Assembly: GCA_964016885.1 (NCBI GenBank)
Contig: OZ024745.1
Coordinates: forward strand, 39,618,001-39,682,000
Reading direction: 5' to 3'
Source: Eledone cirrhosa
Lineage: Eukaryota
Length of the DNA: 64,000 nt
Shown piece by piece: positions 24,745 through 62,240 of this stretch; the stretch's first letter is position 1, and every line of letters begins with the position of its first letter. The notes below the pieces were generated by a model, which did no database searches, was not told the origin of the DNA, and saw nothing but the letters and a program-made list of their open reading frames with translations. Made by a program: the position numbers and the translations under genes.

Positions 24745-24820
24745 ATTAAAATAACAGATTAAAGTTTAAGCAAAGAACCGGTGCTTTGGATTTTAGTCTT
24801 CACATTTATTATTATTACTA
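24745..24820. mobile_element. Family F minimal insertion: inverted internal end joined to tail end
   Basis: attaaaataacagattaaagtttaagcaaagaa + tttggattttagtcttca...attattacta; both pieces occur in 49590-50945. Confidence 0.75.
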
Positions 24821-26444
24821 TATATATATATATATATATATATATATATATATATATACATATATATATTGGTAAAAAGAAAAGAAAATGCTGACAAATA
24901 TATGTATATGTACATATACATATATATATATATATAAATATATATATATATATATATATATATATATATGTAGTAATAATATATATAGTAATAATAATAT
25001 ATACACACGCACACCCATATATCGACACACACACACACACATAAACGCACACACACATATATATATATAATATAAGAATATATATATATACATATAATGT
25101 AGGAGGTGAGTTTTATTGTAAAGCAATGCACACATCGGATAAGAAGCACTCTACAGTTTGTAGGACTGGAGTATACATAATATATATGTTGATTTAAAAC
25201 TGCACTATCCACAAGTGTTTTTAGCCTTCATATCATGTTCTCCTGTTTTATCTGTTGAAAACACAAATATTATTGCATGATGATGTTTGTTTTTGAAATG
25301 CGCATAATAAAATACATGGAACTCCTTTAAACATCTTTTGATCTTATATTATATATATATATATATATATATATATATATATATATATATATATATATAT
25401 ATATATATGTATATATATGTATGTCAGTATAAACATATATGTGCGTTTTTATATATATATATTTATATATATGTGTATGTGTCTGTGTGTATGTGTGTGT
25501 GCGATTAGTGAGTGTACGTATATTTTGTATATATATATATATATATATATTTGAAAAGGGAAGTAAGGTTCTATACAAAACTATGGTTATAGAGAAAAAG
25601 TGAGATTGGAAATAGCACGGAAAATATATGTAATGGTCTGTTTTTCTATTGTTCCTTTCTTTTTTCATGAAAGTAACATTATTGGAAAAAATAGTGGGGC
25701 AATTCTTTCCAGTCTCCTTCTCAACAAGGAAGATAAAAAAATACATACCTCAAGAGTTAATTTTAAATATTTAAATTTTAGTTTTTAATTCTTATTAATT
25801 CTTTTTACTTTAATACTCAACATTTTGTTAGATGAATTTTACTTACACATCGAAACCGGTTATACTTCATATACATTATATACATTATAAAATCCATTTA
25901 AAAAAGACCTCTCCCGCTCATTTGTTCAATAATGTCACTTTGATGAATCATAGAAAGGAAAATAAAAGACAAACAGGCCATTACATATATCTTCCGTGCT
26001 ATATTTAATTTCACCTCTCTATATATACATATATATATGGTTGTGTTTAACATATATAGGGAGAAAACTCCTAACATCTCTACGGTGGTTAATAGATATA
26101 CATCCATCTACAATTGCTTTTCATCCTTTCAATTACGATAAATAAAGTACTAAACGTCTGCATTGGGTGACGGAAGTGTTAAATGGTCTGCGGTGAGGTT
26201 TTACAGTATAGTCTCCAGGACCTCAAGTTCCGACAGAAAATCGCCTCAGATATCTACAGACCTATCTCGCGAAACCACAGTCATAAATTTACTTTAGGCG
26301 AACACTAAGGAAGGATTCATATGGAGGCAGTTTATATATATATATATATATATATATATATATATATATATATATATATATATATAGAGAGAGAGAGAGA
26401 GAGAGAGAGAGAGAGAGAGAGAGAGAGAGAGAGAGAGAGAGAGA

Positions 26445-26545
26445 ATTGTTTCTTCATTAGGCACAAGGCCAGCAATTACCCAGTGCATTACTGGTACTTT
26501 ATTTTATCGAACCCATAAGGATGAAAGGCAAAGTCAATAATGCCG
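26445..26545 (-). mobile_element. SINE 3' half
   Basis: ggcacaaggccagcaattacccagtgcattactggtac...ggatgaaaggcaaagtc. Confidence 0.8.
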
Positions 26546-26615
26546 GGAAAATATACCACTTGAGATAATGTAATTTCTTCCAGCGCCCTTATATAATGAT
26601 AATAATATTAATTAT

Positions 26616-27100
26616 GTTGGATATGACCACCCAGTGCGACCATTTTCTGGTGGCTAGACATTATGGTCGTAGAAAAGAAGAGAACAAAGCATGAAATGTC
26701 GATATTGCTTCACCATGGGACCACAGAGTCATTGAGAAAGAAAGTCAGAAACTTGAAATTGAAGAGAGAAACTGAAGAGAGAAACCAGGAAAGTATTGAG
26801 AACCAGACACGTAGAAGTGGTACTGATTGTGGTTGGCTCGCCGGGAGCAGTTAGTTCAAGGATCGAACCATGACTTGAGGAGATAGGAATTACCATCAGG
26901 ATAGGATTGTTGCAGAAAATAGCCTTGCTGGGAACAGCAATATTTCTAAGAAGGGTTTTGGAAAGTTGAAGTATGAATGACCCAAAGGACTATCGGGCAT
27001 TGGCTGTGGCTCGAACTTTTGGTGTAGTATCGGTTTAACATCTGCCAGGGCAAAAGCGGTACGAATAATAATAATAATAATATTAATAATAATAAGGATG
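26616..27100 (+). mobile_element. 5'-truncated Dong/R4-type LINE (restriction-like endonuclease C-terminus) in (TAA)n
   Basis: TQCDHFLVAR..DIMVVEKK..DIASPWDHRVIEK..VEVVLIVVGSPGAV..LLQKIALLGTAIFLRRVLES*; (AAT)n tail and TAA-rich 5' flank. Confidence 0.75.
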
Positions 27101-59054: not shown

Positions 59055-59229
59055 TAACGAAGGATGTATGGTAAGGAACCGGATGGACCATAACGCACCA
59101 GAGTACTCAATACTTAGGCTAGTAGAGTGGATAATAGGAAAATGTTTAACCCCGACGGCAGGGCTCAAGCCGTTTCGACGGCCGTCGAAACGGCTTGAGC
59201 CCTGCCGTCGGGGTTAAACATTCTCCTAT
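59055..59229 (-). mobile_element. Family A fold-back+tail element (palindrome 59134-59229, tail 59055-59133)
   Basis: Near-perfect 48-bp arms centred at gacgg|ccgtc. Confidence 0.85.
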
Positions 59230-61193
59230 ATATATATATATATATATATATACACACACATTAGTAAAAGGTGAATTGGATTGCGTTCACAGGCGATGTG
59301 ACAAGATGAGGACACGATGCTATTGGTTGCAGGGTATCTATAATAGTAATTAGATATTACGGATCAAAGAATCTGTGTTGCATCATATGCGTATTTTATA
59401 ACATATTACATAGGTTTCACAGCCGATCAGCTCGAGGAACGATTCATTATGTTTGATTCCGGCTCTGGATGTGAGTCTACATTTGAGAACACATAATAGC
59501 TGATAGGCAGTGAAATATATGTAATATGTGATGAAATACTGAGTGTTTGTTCGCCAAATATTATTTTTAAATATACATATATATAAATAAAAAAATATAT
59601 ATATATAATATATATATATATATATATATATATATATATATATATATATATATATATATATATATATACACACATATAACACATATTGAACGAAACGGTA
59701 GAATAGAAAAAAAGCAATTTACTATCTGCAGTAATCTGTTCCAAGCGGGTGAATCCATTGATATCTCAGATATCAAAGGAAATACCGTCAAATTGACTTT
59801 CCTTTGATATGTGGGATATTTTGGGATTTTCATGCCTGAAACGAATGGCTGAAGATCAGAAAATGTTCGCACCCATTTCATCATCCAATATTTGATTTGA
59901 AGAGTTTTTCGACGCAATATAGTCTTTCTTCTAAACTTATATGTTTATGTACGTGTGTGTGTGTGTGCACGCGTGTGTTTGCACGCGGGTGCTTGTGTGT
60001 GTGTGTGTGTGTGTGTGGGTGTGGGTGTGTGTGTGTGTGTGTGTGTGTGTGTGTGTGCACGTGCGTGGTTGTATGTGTGTGTGTTTATGTGCGTATGTTT
60101 ATATAAGATAATTTGGTTGGAATTATGTGAACAAATTTCAGGAGTACATAAGTAGTGCTTTGAGAGGCTGGGAATTTTGGATGGTGCAAATGTTAAGCAG
60201 TTAAATATATAGCCATTTAGTGAGCTGTATTAAATTTAAAAAAATTCTTGTTATATGGAAAGAATGACATATGCAGATACACATAATTTTCAGTTCCGGA
60301 CATATAGTGGTCCTTTTTTCTGCAGGTCTCATTTGAGACATCCGGTATTCTTGATCCGGGATCTGCTGTTTTTCTATAGTAAAACGATTAAACCACTCCA
60401 AATGAAGCAGACCCGCTAGATGTAATAATTAATTTATAGGCTATTGCTTGCTATTTTTCGAATACAGCCTTGGCCATTTTGTCCGCAGTGCACAGAAGAG
60501 ATATAAACTTTCAGCCAAGGATGTAGTATCCTCCCTCATTCACCTTTATTCCTCTTTGGTGCATTTTATAAATAATTAAATATTTGAAATGTTATAGTGC
60601 TGCATAAAATAATTAGAATAATTTAGAAAGAATTGAATTTAGTTTGAATTAATTGAATTTAGAACAACCAAAGGACAAGTATGAAAAGGAATAAGTCATC
60701 CTTTCACTATTGAATACAAAACAGATGAAATATACCAGCAGACAGGATCAGAATGCTTCACACATTACTATATAAAAGACGAGAAACAAACAAAATCAAA
60801 TAGAATGAATTTGTTTTTTTTTAATACCGGAGAAAGTATCAAACAGTATCATCCGAGGTGGAAGAAAAAATAAAATCGTATATACACACAATACTATGAA
60901 TGCATAGAGGAAACACCAAAATACGTATGGATAGGTGCAGGCATGGGTGTGTGTTCGCATCGCAAAAATATATATATACATGTGAATCGAGTACTTATTT
61001 TGTTACCACCACCAATAAGTCACAGAATCGCCTACACTATTTATATATATATATATATATATATATATATATATATATATATATATGTGTGTGTGTGTGT
61101 GTGTGTGTGTGTGTGTGTATAACTATAATATATATATATATATATATATATATATATATATATATATATATATATATATATATATATATATAT

Positions 61194-61802
61194 ATTGTTA
61201 TACTTTGGGAGGGTCATGTTGCCAATAAGAAACACACGCACCAGTAGTTTTCACTTCAATTTATGATATATTTATAAATTTATAAATTTTTATAAATTTA
61301 CAAATCTACAAATTTATAAATTTCTGGTTGGTTGGTTGGTTCCACAACCAGATAGTTGTTTATATATAGTCATAGTCCTTTCGTCACACACTCTGTGACC
61401 TCTTCCGTGACTGGGGATTCCTTTCTTTGTTTCTGTGCCTCTCCGTTCTTCTGTCCTACGCCATTTCTGAAAAATGGCGTAGGACAGAAGAAAGGAAAGG
61501 CACAGAAACAAAGAAAGGAATCCCCAGTCACGGAAGAGGTCACAGAGTGTGTGACGAAAGGACTATGACTATATATAAACAACTATCTGGTTGTGGAACC
61601 AACCAACCAACCAGAAATTTATAAATTTGTAGATTTGTAAATTTATAAAAATTTATAAATGTATAAATATATAATAAATTGAAGTGAAAACAACTGGTGC
61701 GTGTGTTTCTTATTGGCAACATGACCCTCCCAAAGTATAACAATATCGGTTTCAACACACGATTTCAGATAAAGAATCTTGCTAATCAAATTCAGAAACG
61801 AT
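61194..61802 (+). mobile_element. Family D fold-back+tail element, ~275-bp arms centred at 61469, tail 61745-61802
   Basis: Near-perfect palindrome (the ORF track shows mirrored ORFs); hammerhead-like motif in both arms. Confidence 0.9.
61526..61570 (+). ncRNA. Hammerhead-like motif (family D), core CGGAAGA; mirror copy at 61368-61412 on minus
   Basis: AGUCA CGGAAGA G GUCACA gagug UGUGAC GAAAG GA CUA|UGACU. Confidence 0.6.
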
Positions 61803-61869
61803 ATATATATATATATATATATATATATATATAAATATATATATATATATATATATATATATATATATA

Positions 61870-62240
61870 TAGTAATAATAATAAAATTGAAGACTAAAAT
61901 CCAGAGAGGGCTCGATAAGGCAAATATATATCAAATATATAAGAACCGAAGAGCAAATATTTATTAAAATAACGACCTCTTTTATACCATAAACGTGGTT
62001 CTGTCCTTGCACGTAATTGTTTTTCACCGCTCCTATTAATGACGTATTATTCGTTTTTTCCCGTTCTTTGCCAGAGAACGTCACCATGAACCAAAGTATC
62101 GTCTTCCTGTCTTGCTCCGGTTGCAACGTTTTTTGAAATATCCAGTTCTGCGTTTACAGATTGACTTTGTTAGTTTCAGAAGATCCCGTTAAGGGTGAAA
62201 GCAGCGATTCTTTGCTTAAACTTTAATCTGTTATTTTAAT
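61870..62240. mobile_element. Family F element, second copy (tail on minus, 3' UTR arm on plus)
   Basis: Same two termini as 49590-50945; hammerhead-like motif 62172-62222 with core CAGAAGA. Confidence 0.85.

Follow-up and report, generated by a model that had tools for sequence, protein, structure and literature searches.

The Penelope-like retrotransposons (PLEs) in a 64,000-nt stretch of the 3.0-Gb Eledone cirrhosa genome (the window, C5:39618001-39682000) have left inserts composed of two arms in opposite orientation, and these inserts were probably made by fixed-site twin priming on one sense RNA, with the ends joined by microhomology. Three families, F, A, and D, are considered here, whose references are written tail-first with ref 1 being the tail end. 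A T arm starts at ref 1 and an I arm at the internal site, which is ref 91 in F, ref 81 in A, and ref 61 in D; the two fixed start sites are 60-90 nt apart. Inserts of all three families sit in (TA)n. The five inserts that a sequence-only reading of the window had singled out are present as described there, and the arms do not overlap in the F insert at 24745 and the D insert at 58942. In the following list the strand is that of the presumed first-strand complementary DNA (cDNA).

24743..24787, + strand, I arm of the F minimal insert at 24745 (ref 91-135, 94% to the F reference)
24784..24818, - strand, T arm of the same insert (ref 1-35, 97%; 4-nt microhomology with the I arm)
34617..34631, + strand, T arm of the A minimal insert at 34615 (ref 1-15, 1 mismatch, 15 nt matched by eye)
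34632..34639, no strand, 8-nt junction filler of the same insert
34640..34688, - strand, I arm of the same insert (ref ~89-136, 91% over 34640-34683)
49591..49730, + strand, T arm of the F insert at 49590 (ref 1-140, 100%)
49726..50947, - strand, I arm of the same insert (ref 91-1303, 94%; 5-nt microhomology)
58944..58976, + strand, I arm of the D minimal insert at 58942 (ref 61-93, 97%)
58975..59023, - strand, T arm of the same insert (ref 1-49, 98%; 2-nt microhomology, arms without overlap)
61872..61973, + strand, T arm of the F insert at 61870 (ref 1-103, 95%)
61972..62242, - strand, I arm of the same insert (ref 91-361, 96%; 2-nt microhomology)

The F insert at 24745 lacks 55 nt of the tail. 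Its junction 35/135 is found again at C1:43271126 between different flanks, and its own flank, searched against the genome, matches only the window and is therefore single-copy in the assembly. The A insert at 34615 had been described as a direct join of the same kind. Its arms are indeed opposite and do not overlap, but they are separated by the filler, and the I arm ends ~8 nt before the internal end of the family (ref 81), which is thus eroded. The tail-less arm is much longer than the tail-bearing one at both F 49590 (ref 91-1303 against 1-140) and F 61870 (ref 91-361 against 1-103), as had been noticed, and the former I arm spans the 3' untranslated region (3' UTR) including an unspliced intron, plus the open reading frame's (ORF's) 3' end. 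Four of the five junctions show a microhomology of 2-5 nt. The longer arms match the references with E-values from 1e-9 to 0. These E-values, the more than 10,000 exact copies each of F and D, the absence of control matches given below, and the recurring 35/135 junction show that the inserts are not products of chance.

Both arms begin at fixed sites not only in the window, as the sequence-only reading had it, but genome-wide and in a ratio of about 1:1. TA-anchored exact patterns find 12,425 T and 12,937 I starts for F, and 10,828 T and 12,388 I starts for D, whereas reversed control patterns for F and D give 0 matches against >10,000 exact copies per family. The curated two-armed F inserts comprise 117 T+I, 1 T+T, and 1 I+I combinations, and the two-armed A inserts 65 T+I and 1 T+T. 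Pairing by coordinates only results in 30/1/1 (T+I/T+T/I+I) for F and 40/3/1 for D, with some of the six exceptions being neighbouring separate inserts. If each strand chose its site freely, T+T plus I+I would equal T+I; instead, the inserts contain one of each. These pairings were measured from loci and coordinates and not from one genome-wide junction-class count. The F set was built from 92 tail-selected and 86 internal-selected matches on C1 and in 264 kb surrounding the window, leaving out the score-selected loci L001-L030, a tandem read-through mislabelled as T+T, one segmental duplicate, and one tandem duplicate. It includes 11 short-arm or open-ended pairs added by hand, three of them without an observed internal start, and three internally deleted templates scored by reference position. 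The pair counts omit ~25 T-selected and ~30 I-selected arms for which no partner was found, and among these are lone I and lone T arms abutting TA, in like numbers. In A, 17 of 18 automatic T+T labels were gap artefacts (14 + 3 corrected on reading the loci), and the D counts leave out one chimera and a sister family. The internal site was also considered as the spot of best microhomology, which is rejected because ref 50-75 offers better ATAT runs that go unused; arm ends that seemed to lie at ref 50 turned out to be alignment spill into TA. The targets are (TA)n, and as for a single target-site duplication enclosing both arms, a shared flank repeat other than pure TA is present in 6 of 106 inserts, which could easily be due to chance. 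Some tail-only F inserts end at ref 94, in part directly against TA (C1:29132939, 42511335, 42123520, 22009669, and 26939424).

According to the sequence-only reading the inverted arm cannot be a simple snap-back copy of the tail arm, and the arm lengths agree with this. In 74 of the 117 F inserts the I arm outreaches the T arm by >10 nt (>200 nt in 30), the T arm extends >10 nt beyond the I arm in 23 (>200 nt in 12), and in 20 inserts both end within 10 nt of each other. Arms without overlap are found in 34/117 F, 7/65 A, and 10/20 D inserts. Plain snap-back therefore fails, as the inverted arm often carries sequence to which the tail arm did not extend. Tail arms of 9-62 nt are present opposite internal arms of up to 2-3 kb, the extremes being a 29-bp D insert and a T arm of 47 nt opposite an I arm to ref 3094. 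The smallest two-armed inserts have 29-35 bp (L097, C1:23378924; L201, C1:42217729; L260, C2:122624403).

A more elaborate version of snap-back would let the tail-primed cDNA fold back and be copied to a fixed resolution site, and the resulting palindrome with tail would then be shortened by early one-sided deletions. This explains the one-of-each pairing and the shared template of the arms (see below) equally well. It is also in agreement with the many near-symmetric copies (42/65 in A), with the balance of 24:23 between longer I and longer T arms in those F inserts that have both arms past ref 105, and with the fast asymmetric deletions known to stabilise palindromes (PMC8701086). However, decay should shorten either arm alike. 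Among inserts with one arm ending at the common stop, T is the shorter one 17 times and I 3 times (F 9:3, A 8:0; p=0.003), and if one arm is past ref 170, the ratio is 12:1, both of which speak against decay. Similarly, an I arm at the natural stop at ref 150-167 with a short or absent T arm is found in 18 of 86 I-selected matches, and the mirror case in 4 of 92 (hand count, p=0.001). There is no age trend either: the divergence over ref 1-165 has a median of 1.4% in non-overlapping (n=31) and of 2.3% in symmetric copies (n=17; p=0.26), and the non-overlapping F copies are distributed over the age thirds as 11/9/11. In addition, perfect palindromes with 225-275-bp arms are still present in the window, and the internal site is a start site of the reverse transcriptase (RT) in the part of the in vitro work on a related element considered here (PMC11167929). 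Later deletion, the alternative raised together with the original observation, is therefore supported neither by age nor by symmetry, and snap-back followed by decay seems unlikely to us.

The lengths of the two arms had been proposed to be independent, which is rejected for F. The Spearman coefficient is 0.41 overall and 0.02 among T arms up to 170, and the T arm passes ref 170 together with the I arm in 31/32 inserts, whereas the I arm passes alone in 25/85. Arm ends cluster at the 5' edge of a hammerhead-like motif, at 150-167 in F, 131-146 in A, and near 240-260 in D. Termination at the predicted ribozyme cut site (ref ~115) is not supported given the position of the F cluster.

Both arms of an insert share one template. 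The 3' UTR of F contains a 750-nt GT-AG intron, and 216 of the exact F junctions in the genome are spliced and 4,906 unspliced, corresponding to 4.2% spliced. In 41 spliced inserts examined, the partner arm extends past the splice point in 10 cases and is spliced in all 10; two further partners ended at the splice point and one was cut off. The convergent spliced pairs carry a matching C/G variant in 16/16 cases among the first 100 matches listed. Diagnostic sites are concordant between arms at 277/292 positions in A and 220/250 in F, that is 88-95%, compared to 47-48% across inserts. Partners spliced in 10/10 cases at a background of 4.2%, together with the subfamily concordance, imply one template, so the two templates that the sequence-only reading had envisaged are disfavoured. 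The comparison of arm-specific single-nucleotide polymorphisms suggested for this purpose cannot discriminate between snap-back and a twin priming that uses one RNA. For the spliced class the template must have been a sense RNA because the copies are precisely spliced at GT-AG. One F copy (L149, C1:5714009) is spliced at an alternative donor ~36 nt from the main donor.

The alternative that each subunit of a dimer uses a separate RNA, with head-to-head joining of the two cDNAs, would not need any displacement for overlapping arms and would account for the minority of inserts with arms of mixed subfamilies and for two joins of D to F (C12:3940269 and C1:5411578). It is contradicted by the 10/10 spliced partners, by the identical variant letters, and by a site choice that is one-of-each and not free. 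It would require that the two RNAs almost without exception derive from the same locus and are in the same splice state, and as the main route we regard it as very improbable. Self-priming on an antisense RNA, by which palindromes would arise head to head and introns would be kept, has been proposed from junction palindromes and intron retention (Arkhipova et al. 2013, PMC3846280, in the part considered here). While 96% of the F arms are indeed unspliced, the precisely spliced GT-AG copies form the same two-armed inserts and point to a sense RNA, and non-overlapping arms are not predicted. This explanation is insufficient for the spliced class and, as a general one, highly improbable.

The junctions carry the marks of end joining. 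A microhomology of at least 2 nt is present at 40/54 junctions compared to 191/568 simulated ones, and fillers are found at 22/76 junctions versus 5%. An excess of both is expected of end joining. In one public run, 118 raw reads connect a piece of A tail with an internal arm, which shows that junctions of this kind are present in raw reads, although not specifically at the locus in the window. The junctions also bear on the idea that a single (TA)n tract received two separate insertions, later fused by deletion or recombination. Different PLE families do adjoin within single TA tracts, and such fusions may explain the two D-F chimeras, but the junctions are free of TA, and T+T, I+I, and mismatched subfamily or splice states would be expected and are rare. 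As a general route it is refuted by the pairing and concordance counts, and we assign almost no probability to it.

If fixed-site twin priming on one sense RNA is the correct explanation, both cut strands of the TA target would prime their own cDNA on the same RNA, one strand from the tail end and the other from the internal site, presumably within a complex with two active sites (a dimer). The internal RT would run ahead and the tail-primed RT would trail. Once past the internal site the tail-primed RT would displace the first cDNA, resulting in a palindrome with one-sided tail, whereas joining before that site is passed would leave arms that do not overlap. The 5' edge of the hammerhead motif could act as a common stop, and the cDNA ends could be joined through microhomology-based end joining, by host repair or by a template jump of the RT. 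Lone I arms flanked by TA do exist. We cautiously favour the broader notion that endonuclease (EN)-bearing PLEs in at least two clades integrate by default through fixed-site twin priming on one RNA. The two target ends would then be loaded by a dimer onto hard-wired start sites, invariably one of each kind, and the tail, the inverted partial tandem (pLTR), the palindromes, and the minimal inserts of 29-35 bp would all be outcomes of one reaction with the internal RT leading and the tail RT trailing.

Several observations weigh against twin priming on one RNA. Near-symmetric inserts are common, in F (20/117) as well as in A, and some may be true fold-backs; together with the balance of 24:23 they fit snap-back as well. 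Perfect palindromes lose asymmetric pieces within generations (PMC8701086, in the part considered here), and as such deletions outpace point mutations, the age test could miss them. The 12 F inserts in which the T arm exceeds the I arm by >200 nt need displacement or sequential use of the sites. The rule that T passes only together with I is broken by D (e.g. 326/256, 927/108, and 342/124), and only in F do tail-arm ends accumulate at the internal site. Arms of different subfamilies are found clearly in 2/23 F and in 4/52 A inserts, and arms of different families in the two inserts joining D to F. Reads and contigs of all family copies pile onto the arms and skip TA-flanked parts, so that they do not separate into single loci or alleles. 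Finally, in the sections considered of the in vitro study of PAc, a Poseidon PLE of Anolis carolinensis, the use of the start sites does not differ between the strands, so the one-of-each pairing is not by itself predicted (PMC11167929).

The two D-F inserts are built as follows. L012 (C12:3940269-3940815) is one inverted insert, a cross-family and cross-clade chimera, in which a D T arm (ref 1-470) is followed by a 7-nt filler and an F I arm ending at the usual stop at ref 158. In L082 (C1:5409091-5411578), a 62-nt F T arm is opposite to an inverted arm consisting of D ref 61-335 and then F from ref 713.

The closest biochemical parallel is PAc (Frangieh et al. 2024, PMC11167929), for which we refer to the parts of the study that describe the in vitro reaction. 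The PAc protein cuts and extends both strands, the RT starts at two sites bounding the tail, and a dimer is predicted. PAc resembles F, A, and D in these two internal start sites bounding the tail and in the cutting and extension of both strands, and also in the AT-rich targets, the hammerhead in the pLTR (predicted in F and D), and the location of the start sites internal to a tandem RNA. In those parts of the study there is neither a strand difference in start site nor a model of the inverted arm, whereas in F, A, and D the sites are used one-of-each per insert on one RNA. The tail is also longer in F, A, and D (60-90 nt compared to 30-40 nt in PAc), and the F tail end is located ~44 nt upstream of the ATG of the next copy, compared to inside the ORF in PAc. 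Twin priming itself is known from LINE-1 (L1), a long interspersed element in which each of two target ends starts a cDNA of its own on a single RNA, giving inverted pieces and microhomology as in F, A, and D (Meyer et al. 2010, PMC2837659, where dual priming of L1 is described too). According to the part of that work used here, the internal site to which the second L1 primer anneals varies and the L1 arms are free of overlap, while the site is fixed and 60-90 nt away in F, A, and D. Unlike in L1, palindromes formed by overlapping arms are the usual case, and the main product has two arms. The PLE process would thus work like twin priming but not in the L1 form, the site being fixed and only 34/117 F inserts being non-overlapping.

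The Hydra and Neptune EN-bearing PLEs, as described in the relevant parts of PMC8557442 and PMC3846280, resemble F, A, and D in having RT plus a C-terminal GIY-YIG domain, (TA)n targets, partial tandems, an inverted 5'-truncated copy, a one-sided tail, a hammerhead-like motif (predicted in F and D), and an intron in the pLTR. According to Craig et al. 2021 (PMC8557442), in the part considered, the tail results from EN-mediated resolution, while the structures as such are regarded as unexplained. In the same parts of both papers there is no mention of non-overlapping minimal inserts, one-of-each pairing, or splice concordance, all of which are found here. Our literature search, with the subscription papers of 2004-2006 outside its reach, did not find a paper applying twin priming to PLEs or linking two start sites to the inverted arm, and the parts of 10.1101/2024.12.14.628481 and PMC8969392 considered add nothing on the PLE mechanism. 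The origin of the inverted and tailed PLE ends is a named open question (PMC8557442), and the sole in vitro study, as far as considered, stops before that step. The E. cirrhosa genome offers three natural markers for it, namely the one-of-each pairing, the splice tag showing that both arms come from one sense RNA, and the one-sided shortening. Should twin priming be correct, the in vitro system should give joined products of one tail-primed and one internally primed cDNA, and mixing two marked RNAs should give matched arms. It would explain the long-puzzling hairpin-shaped PLE insertions, including the tiny (TA)n hairpin repeats with >10,000 copies per family, which repeat catalogues could misfile as MITEs (miniature inverted-repeat transposable elements) or microRNA-like hairpins.

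That the three families are PLEs, as had been supposed, is shown by ORFs with RT and GIY-YIG endonuclease. By predicted protein motifs, and in the case of A by similarity to F, F and A are assigned to the Hydra type and D to the Neptune type. The F frame in L081 has 501 residues with RT motifs followed by a YIG-type EN. Hydra elements are characterised by the linker CxCX5C, an EN without CCHH, CxxC and CxH next to the residues E and N, an RWK-like motif, and insertion into (TA)n (PMC8557442, in the part considered). The F translation has the linker CxCX5C, no CCHH in the EN, CxxC (CDLC) and CxH (CKH), and RWR encoded by the 5' sequence, and F thus agrees with the Hydra clade; Pfam and PDB searches with the F protein gave no relevant match. 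A has a degraded ORF, 42-53% identical to the F protein, followed by a tandem tail; the linker is illegible in the degraded copy, and A is placed in the Hydra clade through its similarity to F only. In the 779-residue D frame, Pfam finds RVT_1 (E=5e-4) as well as GIY-YIG (E=1e-3), neither of which reaches the curated cut-off; the frame contains the linker CX4CxxC and two cysteines in the GIY-YIG core, in agreement with the Neptune pattern (CX2-5CxxC, and a CCHH motif that has two cysteines between GIY and YIG). The 5' truncation, the pLTR, the inverted copy, and the one-sided tail are all present in these families, and a tandem read-through junction was observed. A hammerhead-like core is predicted at ref 224-252 in D, where it is canonical, and as a variant at ref 133-156 in F, both by a regular expression that has no match in A. 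Among the 150 of 323 Rfam matches listed there are only sub-threshold microRNA-like ones and no hammerhead.

The F element has a length of ~3.26 kb. In five F arms (C1:4924241, 27160172, 36511149, and 41999145; C5:39718217) the sequence jumps from ref 182-265 to the 5' end of the element (ref 3147-3262). The breakpoint differs each time, and the closeness of the RNA ends could be the reason. One F copy is repeated every ~28-40 kb in a large tandem segmental array (L014-L020, C4:351.96-352.26 Mb).

The window has a GC content of 32% and a microsatellite share of about one fifth, and numerous short inverted repeats with TA flanks remain after masking. Further features of the three families are as follows.

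5331..5458, no strand, A insert with T arm to ref 90, 14-nt filler, and I arm to ref 104
21440..21630, no strand, A insert with I arm to ref 145 and T arm to ref 133
51017..51128, no strand, D insert, short palindrome with tail (tail arm 87, internal arm 27)
59057..59226, no strand, A insert, symmetric palindrome with tail (126/126)
61196..61801, no strand, D insert, palindrome with tail (312/311)
62172..62222, + strand, predicted F hammerhead-like motif in sense direction (regular expression, stems by eye; core variant A for U4)

A sister family of D is located at 63022-63437, 48727-48859, and 24199-24236 and is common in the fetched loci; it has the first 25 nt of the I arm in common with D and is divergent beyond. 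More families of palindromic or nested inverted repeats, which are probably other PLEs, are found at 5507-8783 (a complex multi-arm structure), 11595-12102, 17688-18070, 19243-19429, 32769-33036, 49096-49546, 55391-55784, and 58647-58884. L065 contains at ~3700-3800 a fragment that may resemble U2 snRNA (small nuclear RNA). In the window, 47562-47911 and 51301-51650 form a 350-bp inverted pair of 92% identity, ~3.4 kb apart, with several PLE inserts in between.

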